A DNA stretch of 64,000 nucleotides from Escherichia coli (GCF_003018235.1 NZ_CP027437.1); one strand, 5' to 3'; numbered from the stretch's first letter, positions 12,888-33,375 are shown. A program made the numbers and translations. Notes: a model not told the origin generated them from the letters alone.

Positions 12888-14262
12888 CAGCCACACTGTT
12901 GACGACGGACTTTATCTGTTCGTCGGTGCCTGCACGGTTTCAGCCCCCGGAAGGGCTGCGTTCGGGGCTTCACCCCGTTCCCCGGCCTCAGGGTCGCGAT
13001 GCGTTTTCTGCTGCATGACCGTTCAGAACCTCCGTTGATACTCGTCACTCATTACCGTTCGGGCCTTCGGGTGTCATGCCCTACTATGCCCTCTGCTGAC
13101 TCCTGTCCGCCGGTCAGCGCCCCTTACGGTACGCTCAGTTCTGGATACAGAACGACGGACAGGCCTCCCGGGGTAAGTTCAGCTGCCTTCACCACACACC
13201 TGTCCGATTTACCACCCCGGTTCTTGATGGTTATGGCCTTCGCAATTCTTTGCTTGCTCCGCCAACCGGGTAGGCCTCGTATCGGATTTCTGTTCGTCAG
13301 GTCATGGATTTGCTTCACGCTTCCTTCAGACCCCGCTTCACGACGACGCCCTTGCGCTTCGCTAGTCCTTCGCTACCATCAGGCTGGACAGGGGACTTTC
13401 ACCCCCGAGCTGCTGAACATGCCCGGCACACAAAGAAAGCCCCTCCGGAGAGGGGCTGGTATGCGCAATGTTCCATCATCTGCATGGTGCCGGGTGCCTC
13501 CCGGTGAGTCCGGCATCAGCATCCGAACCCGCAATATTGCCCAAATAAAGCTAAAGGATGATTGTGACCTGCTGATTTGCCCCTCCGCACAGGGGGATTC
13601 ACCATGCAGACATTTTCTTAGCAAAATCACTGCGTGCCAGGCAACTCCCAACTACATAAAATGTGGAGTTTGTGGCATTTATGCACATAACTCACAGGAA
13701 TTATCTTAAAAAAGCTGACAGGGCTTCCCCGGCAACGTAATACCATCATTCCCTGAAATGACATCCCCGTATTATCGACAGGCTCAAAAAGGAGCCAGTC
13801 ATCTGAGGATGACTGGAAAAAGGAAAGATAAAAAATTATTCATCATACAACCTTCGTTGCAAGGGAGAATCCTGCGGTGCAGCAACATACAAAAACATAA
13901 GCCAACTAACAATATGCAGGCATAGCATTTTCGGATTTTGTTATATGGCACGGCAACTGAATGCTCACCTGATATACAGTCCGGTATAAAATTGCAAAAA
14001 AAAACGCCAGTTAAGGCGGCATTTAAACAGATAACAGGATTTTTTCGTAATTTCAACAACGTCGGGGTGGCGCATCGTCAGTCCCTGTCAGGAAGTACCA
14101 GCACTCCCACCAACAATGCACCACCCCATTCAGCGTTGTAAAACACGGCACAGGAACTATCAATGTTTTCTGTTACAGTTCGGGAAAAACGATAAACACG
14201 CCACGGGCTCTTTTTGCTGTGAATTAAAAACGGTCCTGAAAGCCGGCTCATCATTTTTTACT

Positions 14263-14339
14263 GGACCGTCACCGGGGACTCGAACCCCGCACTCTCAACA
14301 TAAAAGGTTGATGCTCTTTCCTGATGAGCTAGTGACGGC
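14263..14339 (-). tRNA. phage-encoded tRNA, anticodon read as UUU (Lys-type loop CUUUUAU); identity uncertain
   Basis: 77-nt cloverleaf with 7-bp acceptor stem CCGTCAC/GTGACGG, T-arm CGGGG-TTCGAGT-CCCCG, CCA end. Confidence 0.55.
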
Positions 14340-14340
14340 A

Positions 14341-14416
14341 TGGTGGCCCTTGCTGGATTTGAACCAGCGACCTGGCGGTTATGAGCCGCTCGCTCTCACC
14401 ACTGAGCTAAAGGGCC
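14341..14416 (-). tRNA. phage-encoded tRNA with CAU anticodon, ileX/ileZ-like (tRNA-Ile2 or Met)
   Basis: 76 nt GGCCCTTTAGCTCAGTGG...CTCATAA...GGTTCAAATCC...CCACCA; close to E. coli ileX as I recall it. Confidence 0.8.
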
Positions 14417-18609: not shown

Positions 18610-19428
18610 TCACCCCCTGAATCCTGCCGGGATCTGGCTGTAATCCACGTTGTCGTAACTGGATTTGAAGTACGGGTCCTCACGTCTGGCTGCAGATACC
18701 GCAGGAACTTCCCAGGATTCTTCGAAATGACGATCCGGACCAAAGAACGTGACAGCCTGTTTCACAAATTGTGTGCCGCTGTTACCCATCGCAGATACCC
18801 AGCCCGCATAGCGTTTCACACCTTCCAGCATGGTTTCGGGGTTTACCCCCTCATTCAAACGGGCTTTCCAGGCTTTGAAGGCTGCAGATTTTGAATTGCC
18901 ACCAGCACGTTTGGGATATGCCAGCCATGCCTGCTCAAACTCCGGAGAGTATTCCGGTCGGTTTGAACGAACTCGCACGGACTCATCAACTGATGCACCA
19001 ACAGCTATTGGTTCATTGACTGATTCTTTGACTGGTTCAAAAGAGTGACTGGTTCTGGGTGAATCTCCTGCACTACCCCCTGGTGCAACTCCTGCACTAC
19101 CTGGTGAATTTGCTGCACCAGATAATGAATTATTTGCACTACCCCCTAGTGAATCTCCTGCACCATCCAGATGAAGGAGATAGATATTACTTGAGTTACC
19201 TTTTTCACCTTTCCGGGTGACTTTTTTTACCAGCCCGGACTCACAAAGGGCCGCAATATGATTCATCACAGAACGTTTGCTAATCTCGCACTGGTCAGCA
19301 ATATGCTGGTAGCTGGGCCAGCACTCACCCTGATCGCTGGCATTATCAGCCAGCTTGATCAGAACCAGTTTTCGCAATGGATTACCCACTCGAATTTTCA
19401 TCGCTTTAACCATCAGCTCCATACTCAT
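18610..19428 (-). CDS. replication initiator (lambda O-like N-terminal HTH domain, DnaT-like C-terminal domain)
   Basis: N-terminal wHTH; G/S/A-rich linker encoded by DNA repeats; C-terminus ...DNVDYSQIPAGFRG parallels host DnaT ...[13 protein letters not shown]. Confidence 0.7.
   Translation of the reverse strand: MSMELMVKAMKIRVGNPLRKLVLIKLADNASDQGECWPSYQHIADQCEISKRSVMNHIAALCESGLVKKVTRKGEKGNSSNIYLLHLDGAGDSLGGSANNSLSGAANSPGSAGVAPGGSAGDSPRTSHSFEPVKESVNEPIAVGASVDESVRVRSNRPEYSPEFEQAWLAYPKRAGGNSKSAAFKAWKARLNEGVNPETMLEGVKRYAGWVSAMGNSGTQFVKQAVTFFGPDRHFEESWEVPAVSAARREDPYFKSSYDNVDYSQIPAGFRG
19060..19165. repeat. iteron-like direct repeats inside the initiator gene (putative origin)
   Basis: five copies of a (C/T)TGCAC core at about 19067, 19092, 19113, 19135, 19159, spacing 21-25 bp. 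Confidence 0.45.
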
Positions 19429-19661
19429 GCTGCACCTCCGAGATGCTTCATGTTTTTTCCGGAGCAAAAGGCTATAAGCGGCATACTGATGCGGTAATTA
19501 CGGCCCAGCGGTTCACAAATCACCTTCTGACATTCACGGTCAACCAGGCTAACACGTAGAACATGCCCTGCAGGCGTGGTGTACCACTGCCCAACTGTAG
19601 GAATTGATGTTTTTTTACGCTGAAGCAAACGGCAAATATTGAGGATCAACGGATTAAGCAT
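19425..19661 (-). CDS. hypothetical protein (78 aa)
   Basis: ORF between initiator and upstream gene; no recognisable motif. Confidence 0.35.
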   Translation of the reverse strand: MLNPLILNICRLLQRKKTSIPTVGQWYTTPAGHVLRVSLVDRECQKVICEPLGRNYRISMPLIAFCSGKNMKHLGGAA

Positions 19662-20490
19662 GACGATGCCCTCCGTTGATATTCAGGAGACGGTGAATAT
19701 GAAAATTAGCCTTATCCGCCAAACGAATACGTTCAGCCTGCAAGTTAAGAAGTGTTTCTACCAGAACCTGATGCGCCTGCGGATCCGAAAGAGTTACCTT
19801 GCGCAGAGCACGTAGTGCAGTTGTTACATAACTGAGTTTATGTAAGTCTTCATCATTCAGACGAGTGAGGGCTGGGACAGTAGCCATGATGGCAGCCTCC
19901 TTGATCGGTGAAATACTTCCACCACCGGAAACGCCAATTTCGCTGGTGGTGAACTGAACGGGGTTGGCGTAACCGGTGATCAAGGAAACCGGCGCATCTT
20001 TCGATGCCCCCGCCCAGCCCACCATAACTTTGATGTGAGCAAATGCGGACGATAAAAAAGACGCTGGCGCGTCATATATCGCCTTGATCAATTCCAGGAC
20101 GCCAATCCCGGCACCCGCTTTATAAGGTGCCTGAACAGTGTAACGTCCCGGAATGGCAGAATCAATGTGCTGGTGGTCCTTCACACTCAACAAAATCACG
20201 CCTGAATTTCCACAAAGGACTAAAGCACTCATGCGGGTAGTCTTTGCGAAGATAGATAACGCGCTGTGTTTCTGGCTCCCAACGAATAACATGGACATAA
20301 AGCCCTCTTCCGTCACGAAACCAGCGGTTAAGTTCCTGCACAACTCGCCCCCCACAGTCAGGTAAAGTTCTCTGTGGTTACTTACAGCCAGGTGATTTGG
20401 TAATCTGCATTCATGCCGTAACAACAGGTGTTCAGCGACGCTGACCACCAGCTGTTGCGACAAACGGTTATTTGCCGTTAAACTGTTCAT
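19654..20490 (-). CDS. hypothetical protein (278 aa)
   Basis: long coherent ORF in early-right operon; family not recognised. Confidence 0.5.
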   Translation of the reverse strand: MNSLTANNRLSQQLVVSVAEHLLLRHECRLPNHLAVSNHRELYLTVGGELCRNLTAGFVTEEGFMSMLFVGSQKHSALSIFAKTTRMSALVLCGNSGVILLSVKDHQHIDSAIPGRYTVQAPYKAGAGIGVLELIKAIYDAPASFLSSAFAHIKVMVGWAGASKDAPVSLITGYANPVQFTTSEIGVSGGGSISPIKEAAIMATVPALTRLNDEDLHKLSYVTTALRALRKVTLSDPQAHQVLVETLLNLQAERIRLADKANFHIHRLLNINGGHRHA

Positions 20491-21038
20491 GCGTTAGTTT
20501 CTCCACAGACACAAAACGCCACGACGCCCGGAGCTGCACACTCGCGGGCGTCACTACTTTCTGAAACGCAAAAGATTTTGTAGACCAGTGCTGCATGCTC
20601 CTGGAGCTTCGAAATTGACAGATACAACTCATCATTAATTGCTGTCTGCTCGTGTGGCTCCACTACCCCATCTTCGATTGCCGAACGAATCTGCTTTGAG
20701 TAACTCCCGATCTGTTCGATGACTTCCAGCAGGCGCTGGTTTATATCGGCGTTCTCTACTTCCTCAATTTCAGGAAGCGATACAAACACCCCACCTGCAG
20801 ACTGTGCGACAGCATCCGCAATGTAGTGAGTGCCAGCCGCGCGCTGTAAAATCATTGCCCATCCCAGCGGGAAAATCTGATCGCCATCTGCACGAAGGCG
20901 GTTGAATAAAGCGTTCTCTGTTACATCCAGCCACTCAGCAGCTTCAGCGTAACCCCCCGGCAACGCCGCGATAGTTTTTCTGACAGCTTTCACGTACCAC
21001 TCAGGCTGTTTTTCTACTTTCCAGTGATGCTTACCCAC
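20487..21038 (-). CDS. YdaT-like / CII-analogue protein (start uncertain; ORF extends to 21143)
   Basis: directly downstream of cro-like gene; AAGGAG RBS then GTG at 21038. Confidence 0.35.
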   Translation of the reverse strand: MGKHHWKVEKQPEWYVKAVRKTIAALPGGYAEAAEWLDVTENALFNRLRADGDQIFPLGWAMILQRAAGTHYIADAVAQSAGGVFVSLPEIEEVENADINQRLLEVIEQIGSYSKQIRSAIEDGVVEPHEQTAINDELYLSISKLQEHAALVYKIFCVSESSDARECAAPGVVAFCVCGETNA

Positions 21039-21060
21039 GGCTATCTCCTTAAAACTGTGG

Positions 21061-21309
21061 TTACTTTTCATCTGATGAGTCTTTAATCTTTTGAAAAATA
21101 TCTGGACGTAATTTTTCTTTTGATACGCCAGTGGTCTTTTCAATGAAAATCGAGAGCTTTGCAGGGGGACGCTTTTCTCTGTTCAACCAGTTCCAGACAT
21201 GTTGTTGCTTTACTAAATGACCGCTGCTGGCTGTGAGCTTCCGAGCCAATTCTGATTGACCACCAGCCAGAGCGATTGCCTCCGATAAGGCTAATTGCTC
21301 AGGTGTCAT
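21061..21309 (-). CDS. Cro-like HTH repressor (YdaS family)
   Basis: LAGGQSELARKL...VKQQHVWNW...EKTTGVSKEKLRPDIF; AGGAGA RBS; divergent from cI. Confidence 0.7.
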   Translation of the reverse strand: MTPEQLALSEAIALAGGQSELARKLTASSGHLVKQQHVWNWLNREKRPPAKLSIFIEKTTGVSKEKLRPDIFQKIKDSSDEK

Positions 21310-21324
21310 AGCTTTCTCCTTTTT

Positions 21325-21420
21325 CGGTAGTTAAGTTGTTACGAGATGCAAGAATACAACATTAACAACTTTTATCACAACTTTTAGGTGTTGGAAAGCT
21401 AAAACATAAAGTTGTAACCT
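21325..21420. promoter_or_regulatory. OR-like operator/promoter region between cro and cI
   Basis: repeated AAGTTGT / ACAACTT half-sites and ACAACTTTTAGGTGTTGG motif. Confidence 0.5.
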
Positions 21421-21444
21421 CATCAGAAAAGAGAGGGATATGTT

Positions 21445-22131
21445 GTGAAAACACTGGCAGAACGATTAAAGATAGGTAGAGAGAAAGCTGGCATGAGCCA
21501 AGCTCAACTAGCTGAAAAAATTGGACTTTCACAACAATCTGTAGCCAAAATAGAGAATGGAGAAACTCTACAACCGCGCAAAATTAAAGAAATTGCAAAA
21601 ATTTTAGGTGTATCACAAAAGTGGTTACAACTTGGTATTGAAGACAACGCATCCATACCTGATCTTGTTGTAAAAGAAGCAGAAAGCACCGCATTAGACC
21701 CCGATATTTTCGTAAACATTCCTGTTTTAGATGTCGAGTTATCGGCTGGTAACGGATGTCTGGCTGAAATAGTTGAATCAGCTATTGACTGGTTTCCGTT
21801 AAGAAGAGCAGATTTGAGAAAATCTGGCGTATGTGCATCTAATGCCAAGATCGTAAAAATCTGGGGGAACAGTTTATTACCGGTTCTCAATAATGGAGAT
21901 CTTGTTGCCGTTGATATTTCTCAAACCGTTCCTATTCGTGATGGCGATCTTTATGCCGTACGAGATGGTGTATTGCTAAGGGTTAAAATACTTATCAACT
22001 TACCTGACGGTGGCTTGATTCTTAGAAGCTTCAACAAAGATGAGTACCCAGATGAAATACTCACCTTTGAGGATAGACGAGCCAGAATTCATGTTATAGG
22101 TAGGGTATTCTGGTCATCGCGAACTTGGTAA
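21445..22131 (+). CDS. CI-type repressor (HTH_XRE plus S24 LexA-like peptidase domain)
   Basis: N-terminal HTH MSQAQLAEKIGLSQQSVAKIENGE; C-terminal GNSLLP ... RVK; GTG start after GAGAGGG RBS. Confidence 0.85.
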   Translation: MKTLAERLKIGREKAGMSQAQLAEKIGLSQQSVAKIENGETLQPRKIKEIAKILGVSQKWLQLGIEDNASIPDLVVKEAESTALDPDIFVNIPVLDVELSAGNGCLAEIVESAIDWFPLRRADLRKSGVCASNAKIVKIWGNSLLPVLNNGDLVAVDISQTVPIRDGDLYAVRDGVLLRVKILINLPDGGLILRSFNKDEYPDEILTFEDRRARIHVIGRVFWSSRTW

Positions 22132-22653
22132 TGCGTCGAAAAGCATTTCTTCAGAAATAATTTTAAGTTTTGCACCATTATCATCCCGATAAGATATAGC
22201 CTTTTCGATCTTCCTTCCGTGACTTGAGAATTTCCAATCACGGGAGGAAAGCGTCCCTATTACTAAAAAATCCAACTTTTGAGTAATTCCACTACTGATG
22301 TTCCCACCAGCATTTTTAATCAAATTTTCAACTACGGCTCTCTTTCCTGCAACAAAAGTGCCTGTAAGACAATAGGTTTTACCCTCTAACTCTATCGAAG
22401 CCCCTACATCAATAGGCAGCCTGGTCGCCAAACCATCCACCACCCCACTTTCCAAGTCACATCCAGTGAAGTCTACTAATGCCTTATGTAGAGTTAAACT
22501 CTCATCTTCAGTAATAACACCATCTTTAAGAATTTCCTTTACAAGTGCATAAAGGTTTTTTCCTGGGTAGTTGTTCCTCAAAGCTCCATTTTGCTCAAGC
22601 CACCAATTAAGATATCTTATTTCTTCTTGAGTTAAGTTTCGATCAGCAATTAA
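22114..22653 (-). CDS. in-frame continuation after TGA: two TerB-like motif copies plus C-terminal BRCT-like domain (no ATG; TTG at 22581)
   Basis: frame open from the TGA at 22654-22656 to 22114; LIADRNLTQEEIRYL and ILKDGVITEDESL motifs; BRCT-like GKTYCLTGTF...DFLVIG. Confidence 0.45.
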   Translation of the reverse strand, partial: LIADRNLTQEEIRYLNWWLEQNGALRNNYPGKNLYALVKEILKDGVITEDESLTLHKALVDFTGCDLESGVVDGLATRLPIDVGASIELEGKTYCLTGTFVAGKRAVVENLIKNAGGNISSGITQKLDFLVIGTLSSRDWKFSSHGRKIEKAISYRDDNGAKLKIISEEMLFDALPSSR

Positions 22654-23004
22654 TCATTTACATAGTCCATTAAGTAAATGGACATCTACATCTTTGGAGT
22701 AAAAATCAATTTCAGGGATATCAAGAATTTCTCTCTGTATTTGAAGAAGGCTATTTTTAAGGTCATCACGTTCTTCTGATGTGATTATTCCATCCGCAAG
22801 AATATCCGATACCCGTGCTGATAGACTTTTTATAACTCCATTATTGATAATCTGCTTTGCTTCAAGTAACCATGTATCTAAGTAAAGAACCTCCTCTTCA
22901 CGGACAACTCCATCTGCAATGATTCCATCAATGATGCTAATCAAGTTAGCAAATAACTTGTCCCGGTTCTGTGTGTAATTAAAAGCGTAAAGCGCGTCTT
23001 CCAT
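22654..23004 (-). CDS. TerB-like repeat protein (116 aa), ends at in-frame TGA
   Basis: ATG 23004 with AGGAGG RBS; two copies of I-[IL]-A-D-G-[VI]-x-x-E-E motif. Confidence 0.6.
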   Translation of the reverse strand: MEDALYAFNYTQNRDKLFANLISIIDGIIADGVVREEEVLYLDTWLLEAKQIINNGVIKSLSARVSDILADGIITSEERDDLKNSLLQIQREILDIPEIDFYSKDVDVHLLNGLCK

Positions 23005-23060
23005 ACAACCTCCTTTTTTTGATAATCCTTGCACTCCTTGACTACACGTTCAAACTACAT

Positions 23061-33052: not shown

Positions 33053-33139
33053 GCGAAGGTGGCGGAATTGGTAGACGCGCTAGCTTCAGGTGTTAGTGTC
33101 CTTACGGACGTGGGGGTTCAAGTCCCCCCCCTCGCACCA
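33053..33139 (+). tRNA. leuV: tRNA-Leu (CAG)
   Basis: 87-nt GCGAAGGTGGCGGAATTGGTAGACGCG...CTCGCACCA; first of three identical copies (copy naming tentative). Confidence 0.9.
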
Positions 33140-33167
33140 AAAACCACGTTGATATTGCTCGCACTGG

Positions 33168-33254
33168 GCGAAGGTGGCGGAATTGGTAGACGCGCTAGCT
33201 TCAGGTGTTAGTGTCCTTACGGACGTGGGGGTTCAAGTCCCCCCCCTCGCACCA
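33168..33254 (+). tRNA. leuP: tRNA-Leu (CAG)
   Basis: identical second copy. Confidence 0.9.
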
Positions 33255-33288
33255 AACGAGGCGATATCAAAAAAAGTAAGATGACTGT

Positions 33289-33375
33289 GCGAAGGTGGCG
33301 GAATTGGTAGACGCGCTAGCTTCAGGTGTTAGTGTCCTTACGGACGTGGGGGTTCAAGTCCCCCCCCTCGCACCA
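33289..33375 (+). tRNA. leuQ: tRNA-Leu (CAG)
   Basis: identical third copy. Confidence 0.9.

Follow-up and report, generated by a model that had tools for sequence, protein, structure and literature searches.

The systems closest to the locus discussed here are the RNA-based control regions of phages P1 and P7, of the satellite phage P4 and of the Salmonella prophage Gifsy-1. The locus itself centres on an open reading frame (ORF) of 278 codons on the minus strand of a 64,000-nucleotide (nt) stretch of Escherichia coli DNA (GCF_003018235.1, NZ_CP027437.1). That whole stretch is called the window below, and coordinates given without another name refer to it. For P1 and P7, Citron and Schuster (work of 1990 and 1992) are said to have found that the C4 RNA has two single-stranded sites, which pair with a1/b1 upstream and with a2/b2 where ribosomes bind for the first translated gene. 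Specificity variants of these sites reportedly give heteroimmunity, and the system is reported to supplement a protein repressor with a secondary immunity. The C4-type RNA of P1 and P4 is processed from a longer transcript by RNase P.

As far as the summary in PMC10111431 goes, P4 has a constitutive promoter internal to its eta gene. Interactions at CI and seqA soon bring its transcript to an end, and processing turns this transcript into the CI immunity RNA; Kil is a shortened version of Eta nested within it, and translation of Eta prevents termination (PMC10111431). The isrK-orf45-anrP region of Gifsy-1 is a homologue that has been studied experimentally. Its translation begins from an AUG at the 5' end of a C4-like region, and in orf45 the nucleotide sequence is conserved and the amino-acid sequence is not (PMC4825925). 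IsrK supplied in trans raises translation of anrP more than 100-fold and is required for prophage induction (PMC4825925).

The elements of these systems recur in the window. The 278-codon ORF is, in our opinion, probably an immunity locus of the P4 eta/kil type, that is, a secondary switch of the P4/P1 kind placed ahead of replication genes. Its parts are the following (lengths of products in amino acids, aa).

19654-20490, minus strand: eta-like long ORF, 278 codons, matching PF10554; its start ATG (20488-20490) overlaps the ymfL stop in ACGCATGA.
20162-20341, minus strand: DUF4222 gene of 59 aa, contained in the long ORF but read in another frame; Pfam PF13973, and PHROG 1343 over its full length.
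20137-20165, minus strand: candidate internal promoter; -35 TTGATT at 20160-20165, spacing of 17 nt, -10 TACACT at 20137-20142, predicted start G 20130.
20054-20130, minus strand: leader RNA of the isrK / P4 seqA type, Rfam RF01394, with a1 at 20099-20105, b1 at 20082-20089 and an intrinsic terminator.
19942-20029, minus strand: antisense RNA of the C4 / P4 CI type, Rfam RF01695, with an AUG at 20023-20025, the b' loop at 19978-19985 and the a' linker at 19964-19970.
19896-19937, minus strand: the targets a2 (19931-19937) and b2 (19899-19906), in overlap with AAGGAGG (19896-19902), the Shine-Dalgarno sequence of the nested gene.
19654-19887, minus strand: nested gene for 77 aa (MATVPALT...), in frame with the long ORF, with AAGGAGG and ATG 19887, in the position of P4 kil and P1 icd.

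Both RNA genes lie on the ORF's own strand, exactly beneath its match to the Pfam Ash family. The leader RNA matches RF01394 at 64.2 bits (gathering threshold 50) over model positions 1-77 of 77, and its 3' end was picked up by a terminator scan as an intrinsic terminator (stem at 20060-20073 followed by U6). The C4 RNA matches RF01695 at 82.3 bits (gathering threshold 45) over positions 1-87 of 87. Folding 21 diverse C4 copies, the window's included, with RNAalifold gave 28 base pairs, 17 of which show compensatory double changes, and almost none is broken. An earlier description of this DNA, made by a model without database searches (the sequence-only reading), had omitted these two Rfam-grade RNA genes as well as the alternate-frame DUF4222 gene within the 278-codon ORF.

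The pairing sites are equally recognizable. The loop of C4 hairpin 2, b' (CCTTGATC, 19978-19985), is complementary to GATCAAGG, which occurs at b1 and again at b2; the linker after hairpin 2, a' (ACGCCAA), is complementary to TTGGCGT, which occurs in the hairpin loop of the leader (a1) and at a2. In the window the complementarity is exact, over 7 nt for a' and 9 nt for b', against a1/b1 and a2/b2 alike. In the minimum free energy fold of the leader (z = -5.1), the C4 segment with a'/b' is paired to the downstream segment that contains a2/b2 and the Shine-Dalgarno sequence. Among close relatives a'/b', a1/b1 and a2/b2 change together. Viral contigs scanned for the conserved Shine-Dalgarno-ATG motif supplied 32 distinct (b', a') specificity types, whose cognate matches are typically 8-10 nt long for b and 7 nt for a; b1 plus b2 complementarity averages 15.6 nt for cognate combinations versus 9.3 nt for non-cognate ones. 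At the a2 site of Shigella phage SfV there is a G-to-C change (GCCGT for GGCGT), which interrupts the 7-nt pairing with a'; in the window this pairing is intact.

The candidate internal promoter is nearly invariant among 7 relatives. Promoters are found at an equal distance upstream of the leader start in all the modules compared, those of the window, Stx2 phage F004 (TTGACT-17-TATATT), 06-3462, a Klebsiella phage and P4 (PLE), and it is this position, conserved across modules, not a consensus scan, that makes it a candidate. The same promoter-isrK-C4 module, with other a/b specificities, precedes Rha/Ant antirepressor genes elsewhere (F004, 06-3462 and Klebsiella phage ST512-KPC3phi13.3). Since it is found before Rha/Ant genes at other genome positions, the module behaves as a mobile cassette.

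The long frame that crosses these RNA genes has a protein label of its own. In Pfam it scores 67.7 bits against PF10554 (Phage_ASH; cut-off 26) over residues 117-210, it also matches PHROG 3960/821, and its NCBI name is 'ash family protein'; no NCBIfam model matched the 278-aa ORF, the 77-aa ORF or the 78-aa ORF that follows (ORF78). The sequence-only reading had described a protein without a recognizable family, and this is no longer tenable: besides having these profile matches, the ORF can be assigned with confidence to a known regulatory system, that of P4 eta/kil. Annotations of this DNA differ. The RefSeq pipeline splits it into a 59-aa DUF4222 protein and a 181-aa Ash protein, and some records annotate both RNAs and let the protein start after them.

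Within its RNA part the long ORF has no codon periodicity (variable columns by codon position 31/31/33, and 24/26/10 within the 278-aa class), and non-synonymous changes are in large excess. The amino-acid sequence of this part is unconstrained, yet stop codons are avoided in the frame. Among 99 unique modules, which amount to only about 19 clusters at 85% identity, the long frame is stop-free in 97 for the C4 part and in 93 for the leader part; the corresponding numbers for the other two frames are 55 and 20, and 48 and 15. Upstream, long ORFs are joined to the preceding gene by an ATGA overlap in 42 of 86 modules, and in 52 of the 86 they start at the stop of that gene or within 25 nt of it. 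To judge from these junctions, the long frame is translationally coupled to ymfL in the window.

The same holds where the frame crosses the DUF4222 gene, residues 50-110 of the long ORF being an out-of-frame reading of that gene. When DUF4222 was recoded at random with synonymous codons, the overlapping long frame was still open in only 3-6% of trials. In nature it is uninterrupted in 32 of 32 DUF4222 variants, the sole stops being the terminal stop of the ymfM-type frame itself in e14-type variants. No DUF4222 copy was found outside a long overlapping frame; those of SfII, KpF5, 733R5 and e14 are all overlapped by a frame of the ymfM type. We had considered the 278-aa ORF to be purely a spurious artefact of reading across RNA genes. 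This idea was given up because the frame is so rarely interrupted among the 99 modules, because recoding leaves it open in so few trials, and because P4 eta, with the same layout, is a translated ORF.

The DUF4222 gene, for its part, is under purifying selection in its own frame. It matches PF13973 at 51.1 bits (gathering threshold 27), and its variable columns across relatives are distributed 11/7/35 by codon position. Between the window and Stx1_14040 there are 22 synonymous and 10 non-synonymous differences in the DUF4222 frame, against 3 and 29 in the frame of the long ORF. The start codon is GTG, ATG or TTG, always at one shared site. A programmed frameshift from the long frame into DUF4222 was also considered and rejected; none is needed, as DUF4222 has its own start codon and Shine-Dalgarno sequence.

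In other phages, mosaic breakpoints coincide with the start or the stop of DUF4222 or lie around the RNA module; they do not follow protein-domain borders. The first 13 residues of the long ORF and its residues 48-98 correspond to YmfM (PHROG 1170). The first 50 codons (20342-20490, minus strand) belong to no family, nor is there a clear coding signature in them. Between the window and sal3 they differ by 7 synonymous and 14 non-synonymous changes and an in-frame deletion of 6 nt, and apparent inverted repeats can be seen there by eye (AACGG...CCGTT and CAACAG...CTGTTG). In e14-type phages the sequence past the first 40 nt or so of this ORF is a different and better conserved one.

At the other end of the long ORF is the nested 77-aa gene, the cargo of the module. 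It starts in the context GGAGGCTGCCATCATGGCTAC, which it shares with P4 kil, and its product is a real protein: the variation is of coding type (variable columns 7/2/10 by codon position), diverged homologues (45-48% identity) conserve a core LVTTALRxLRKV...LQxERxRL, and its predicted structure is a helical hairpin with a predicted local distance difference test (pLDDT) score of 82.5. By position the product would correspond to Kil/Icd or to an antirepressor. With P4 Kil it has no similarity beyond the shared start. By tblastn the gene was found in 17 phage records, in the same context only, and an exhaustive HMMER search gave 11 matches, all of them linked to the module or repeats. In mEp460, PhiR47_1, 118970_sal3, Stx1_14040 and an E. 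coli prophage, 620 nt of shared upstream sequence are followed, from this same ATG, by an antirepressor of the Rha type.

In P4 itself the same Rfam families are found where they would be expected, RF01695 at the CI RNA (8420-8507) and RF01394 at the seqA region (8615-8692). Both the P4 'cI gene product' ORF and the full ORF of 199 codons (Eta, ATG 8767) match PF10554, Eta over its full length at 82.4 bits; P4 epsilon does not match it and matches PF25738 instead. On the P4 spans 7888-8175 and 8168-8767, the part of Eta that PF10554 covers is the seqA/CI RNA region, and epsilon is left uncovered. P4 eta starts in a ACGCATGA overlap with the stop of orf88, as the long ORF does with ymfL, and the 65-aa Kil starts at the GGAGGCTGCCATCATGGCTAC motif found at ATG 19887. 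The likeness extends over the order of elements, both RNA families, the Shine-Dalgarno and ATG of the nested gene, the coupling, PF10554 and the place upstream of replication genes. In P4 this order runs from PLE through seqA, the CI RNA and seqC, with eta and kil nested, to the replication genes. The differences are that the window module is in a lambdoid phage which also has a protein CI/Cro switch, that eta has 199 codons whereas the window ORF has 278 and also crosses a DUF4222 gene in another frame, that the 77-aa gene is unrelated to Kil past the first residues, and that the a/b specificity is another one.

The other systems can be compared in the same way. The immI operon of P1 and P7 (c4, icd, ant1/2) shares the C4-family RNA, the pairing at two sites and the role in secondary immunity; its cargo is icd-ant, whereas the window has a 77-aa gene followed by replication genes and has its module within a translated long ORF. 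Gifsy-1 (isrK-orf45-anrP-isrJ) shares the isrK leader with a terminator, the processed C4-like RNA (STnc1160) and the AUG of the leader ORF (20023-20025 in the window). There, however, orf45 stops in an AUGA overlap with anrP, while the window frame runs on into the cargo gene; cargo and genomic position also differ, and regulation is described there as activation by IsrK in trans. The sister phages mEp460, PhiR47_1 and Stx1_14040 have a Rha/Ant antirepressor as cargo, unlike the window.

The genes around the module are as follows.

21445-22131, plus strand: CI-like repressor, 228 aa; Pfam helix-turn-helix (HTH) family HTH_3 and Peptidase_S24, each with an expect value (E) of about 1e-15, and PHROG 4, transcriptional repressor.
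21310-21444, no strand assigned: presumed divergent promoter/operator region of 135 nt, with ACAACTT / AAGTTGT half-site repeats.
21061-21309, minus strand: Cro-like HTH protein of the YdaS family, 82 aa; Pfam YdaS_toxin PF15943 and PHROG 35, with the Shine-Dalgarno sequence AAAGGAGAAAGCT before its ATG.
20487-21038, minus strand: predicted regulator of the YmfL / phage 186 CII type, 183 aa, GTG start; Pfam, NCBIfam, PHROG 101 ('CII-like') and an AlphaFold model.
19425-19661, minus strand: ORF78, 78 aa, distantly DUF4222-like, PHROG 1153; its ends overlap the long ORF's stop and the replication gene's start.
18610-19428, minus strand: O-like replication initiator, HTH_36 / DnaD_N-like; Pfam HTH_36, and PHROG 270 at 299 bits.

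This compact minus-strand operon, divergent from the repressor gene, belongs to a lambdoid prophage of the SfV kind and is its early-right operon. Its gene order is Cro-like YdaS, CII-like YmfL/186 CII, the immunity module of P4 eta/kil type, a small DUF4222-like ORF and the replication initiator; PerC-like, LexA-like, RusA, KilA-N and DUF968 genes lie beyond. From 19400 to about 21043 the window is 98.7% identical to orf36-39 of Shigella phage SfV, over 78% of a 2.1-kb query (cro, ymfL, long ORF and ORF78) that finds matches in 3045 of 5426 complete E. coli genomes; given this identity and these matches, we are dealing with conserved, real features and not with chance ORFs. The depositors of SfV labelled orf37 'immunity region'. 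The cI/cro alleles of the window differ from the SfV and e14 alleles; their matches are in other E. coli prophages.

All three minus-strand ORFs that the sequence-only reading had listed are present, at 21061-21309, 20487-21143 (the longest frame, 218 aa) and 19654-20490. It rightly called the first Cro-like and of YdaS type. The 82-aa protein matches PF15943 at 55.7 bits (cut-off 30), with residues 8-74 on profile positions 1-63 of 65, and it takes the Cro position, that is, the first gene divergent from the HTH_3 and Peptidase_S24 repressor; direct and inverted repeats occupy the spacer between cI and cro at 21333-21341, 21363-21374, 21377-21386 and 21408-21418. Against solved structures its only match is a marginal one, to a Cro (3bd1, E 0.066). 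YdaS/YdaT pairs are analogues of cro and cII (PMC9986795, PMC8630535, PMC5917428). The view that such genes form an early-regulatory cro/cII arrangement rather than a toxin-antitoxin pair also holds here, as a YdaS-family Cro-like gene is followed by a CII analogue; in Pfam, PHROG and NCBIfam searches (PADLOC was not searched) no toxin or antitoxin family surfaced other than the historical name 'YdaS_toxin'.

What has to be changed is the family of the second gene, which was taken to be YdaT-like. The functional logic of a cro/cII pair survives, and the CII analogue is, by its profiles and predicted fold, of the YmfL / 186 CII family. It likely starts at GTG 21038 behind AGGAG, which gives 183 aa, the annotated length of ymfL in relatives. 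It matches Pfam Phage_CP76 (PF06892) at 54.7 bits (cut-off 26) and the NCBIfam YmfL equivalog NF041471 at 168.5 bits (cut-off 90). There is no match to YdaT_toxin (PF06254) in it, even at E<=1, and among the homologues in the matches listed PF06892 is present in 120 of 120 and PF06254 in none. The AlphaFold model (pLDDT 71.7) has an N-terminal domain of five helices and two long helices. Compared with solved structures, its top seven matches are chains of phage 186 CII (6vli/6vpe) with probability 1.00, template-modelling scores of 0.44-0.57 and E of 0.008-0.08, which is moderate support; no YdaT structure is among the 50 matches listed, and a sequence search of the PDB gave nothing at E<=10. 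The Rac/CP-933P arrangement is similar in having a YdaS-family Cro-like gene, a CII analogue of the tetramer-type HTH kind and replication genes, and differs in that the second gene there is YdaT.

Neither is the 278-codon ORF the last gene before the replication initiator, as had been supposed, since ORF78 lies between the two and overlaps both, with an ATGA junction at 19425-19428 on the replication side. Compared by hhalign, ORF78 and DUF4222 are related at E 2.4e-4, and DUF4222 weakly matches PHROG 1153. An overlap between a small DUF4222-type gene and the start of the initiator gene also occurs in e14 and KpF5, and the arrangement seems to be conserved.

If the window module works as its relatives do, the following sequence of events can be proposed by analogy with P4, P1 and Gifsy-1. 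In the lysogen the main promoter would be repressed. The internal promoter, if it is active and constitutive, would yield a short leader RNA, and read-through followed by processing would yield the C4 RNA. Pairing of C4 with a2/b2 would block translation of the 77-aa gene, and the untranslated transcript would terminate, perhaps in a Rho-dependent way, before the replication genes. This would amount to a second, RNA-based layer of immunity with its own specificity; we call it second because the phage that carries it also has a CI/Cro protein switch. After induction, transcripts from the main promoter would be translated from ymfL directly into the long frame, and ribosomes crossing the terminator, C4 and a2/b2 would prevent both termination and antisense action, so that the replication genes could be expressed. 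The module probably gates the expression of these genes, as in P4, because the cargo gene, ORF78 and the initiator are joined by overlapping stop and start codons.

Several points weigh against this proposal. The locus is known here from its sequence alone, and the mechanism of P4 through a secondary summary (PMC10111431, as far as that account goes). A scan of 19400-21500 for consensus promoters reported none, and the internal promoter agrees with the consensus at only 8 of 12 positions. Stop-free frames in modules that form so few clusters are partly inherited by descent. A fold search with the 77-aa product was uninformative as to its role, the predicted structure being a generic helical hairpin. 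Finally, over-expressed IsrK in Gifsy-1 activates downstream genes and does not repress them, so that here the regulation could be of either sign.

This last point leads to a positive switch of the Gifsy-1 type, in which a short IsrK-like leader, made from the internal promoter and acting in trans, would open read-through transcripts, activate the frame in the C4 region, the 77-aa gene and the downstream genes, and so promote induction instead of conferring immunity. The window does have a full-length isrK match with its terminator, and the AUG of the orf45 type is conserved at 20023-20025, where it opens a frame into the 77-aa ORF. Moreover, a1/b1 are identical to a2/b2, and therefore the leader RNA could titrate C4. 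The effect of IsrK on anrP and the need for it in Gifsy-1 induction (PMC4825925) are precedents. On the other hand, the same set of RNAs is repressive in P1 and, according to the summary, in P4 (PMC10111431), and the orf45 counterpart of the window is fused in frame to the cargo, with no AUGA overlap as in Gifsy-1. We regard such a positive switch as possible though rather unlikely. It does not exclude an immunity function of the P4 eta/kil type, and the two could be reconciled if the leader RNA titrated C4.

Less probable still, in our view, is an ordinary regulatory protein as the point of the 278-aa ORF: a transcriptional regulator of the 'Ash family' or of the Bro network, or an antirepressor. 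The product, and not the act of translating it, would then matter, and the RNA matches would be secondary. Such a view could appeal to an ORF that is open and annotated at 278 aa in very many genomes, to PF10554, to the label 'transcriptional regulator' of PHROG 3960/821, to a frame kept stop-free, and to the treatment of Ash as a protein domain in the literature (PMC8951638, PMC10111431). It is hard to reconcile with an Ash match that coincides exactly with two RNA genes of co-varying structure and target sites, that has no third-position periodicity and that shows a large non-synonymous excess. Nor does it agree with residues 50-110 being an out-of-frame version of DUF4222, which is itself under purifying selection, with mosaic boundaries at the ends of DUF4222 and of the RNA module, or with records in which the protein starts after the RNAs. 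The picture drawn by the sequence-only reading, a YdaS/YdaT pair followed by an orphan protein of no family that might be toxic, we consider very improbable. The YdaS match in it is real, YdaS/YdaT genes are cro/cII analogues as said above, and ymfM of e14, in the equivalent position, inhibits cell division when over-expressed. But the second gene belongs with YmfL and 186 CII and not with YdaT, and the third ORF is assigned to PF10554 and P4 Eta and contains RNA genes.

The e14 case deserves separate discussion. The ymfT-ymfL-ymfM region of e14, like SfII/SfV, resembles the window in having a Cro-like gene, YmfL, an ORF beginning MNSLT... in an ATGA overlap, DUF4222 in another frame and a replication gene. 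In e14 and SfII, in contrast to the window, there is no RNA module, the long frame closes at 112 codons (ymfM), and it is the DUF4222 gene that directly overlaps the beginning of the replication gene. A ymfM-type frame overlaps the DUF4222 gene (68 bits in Pfam) in e14, SfII, KpF5 and vB_EcoS-733R5, and in all of these the DUF4222 stop overlaps the start of the replication gene. On the respective stretches, the overlap of ymfM with DUF4222 (+2 frame) lies at 3323-3661 in e14 (E. coli K-12), 1271-1609 in SfII and 1274-1609 in KpF5. Between e14 and KpF5 the C-terminal 52 codons have 0 synonymous and 28 non-synonymous differences in the ymfM frame, versus 23 and 6 in the DUF4222 frame; in the N-terminal 58 codons the ymfM frame has 14 and 23. 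Where the two overlap, it is the DUF4222 frame that is under selection and not the ymfM frame. Because the published construct contains the ymfM ORF, it carries most of the DUF4222 ORF as well, and since the C-terminal half of YmfM is DUF4222 read out of frame, the division phenotype could belong to either product. Which of them causes the SfiC division block of e14 is a question that can be tested.

A few other features of the window may be mentioned. Pieces of a group II intron are matched in Rfam on the minus strand, domains D1-D4 at 13062-13347 and the catalytic domain at 9609-9681, which suggests that such an intron is inserted in the prophage (9609-13347, minus strand). On the same strand are a match to the small RNA STnc100 (134 bits) at 13426-13637 and two adjacent transfer RNA (tRNA) genes at 14265-14416. 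Three tandem tRNA matches with identical scores, spaced by about 115-120 nt, are found at 33053-33372 on the plus strand. At 22114-23034 (minus strand) there are adjacent ORFs of 155 and 126 aa, where a related E. coli prophage has a single 296-aa gene with a BRCT domain beside the repressor; the window's copy of this gene may be split.

All components of the locus are of kinds that have been described. It adds one more case to them, and its main value lies in correcting annotation; switches of this kind are regularly recorded as ordinary proteins. Calls of 'Ash family protein' and 'Rha/Ash domain' are widespread and are used as protein markers, and the RNA genes change what such calls mean. 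PF10554 figures as a domain of unknown function in the regulatory typing of Stx phages (PMC8951638) and as a marker of 'epsilon' for P4-like satellites (PMC8628076). The latter use is at odds with the present match, which is to P4 Eta over the seqA/CI RNAs and not to epsilon. It seems under-appreciated that the Ash 'domain' coincides with two RNA genes, that an eta-like frame crosses a selected DUF4222 gene, and that the same overlap is present in ymfM of e14.

Taken together, the region 19888-20341 would carry a DUF4222 gene, two RNAs with their targets and a frame selected only for being open; Ash would then not be a protein domain, and ymfM of e14 may need re-examination. This combined statement we put forward tentatively, as one nearly as apt to be right as wrong. 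If it is true, the second frame is open to let ribosomes that come from the preceding gene run on and overcome termination and antisense control, and the conservation of Ash reflects, at the amino-acid level, that of the isrK and C4 RNAs. Prophages of the SfV-like and Stx2c types appear to carry a second, RNA-based layer of immunity directly upstream of their replication genes. At least 32 pairing specificities occur among the viral contigs sampled. Such a layer is relevant to superinfection exclusion and induction, and possibly to the behaviour of Stx phages.

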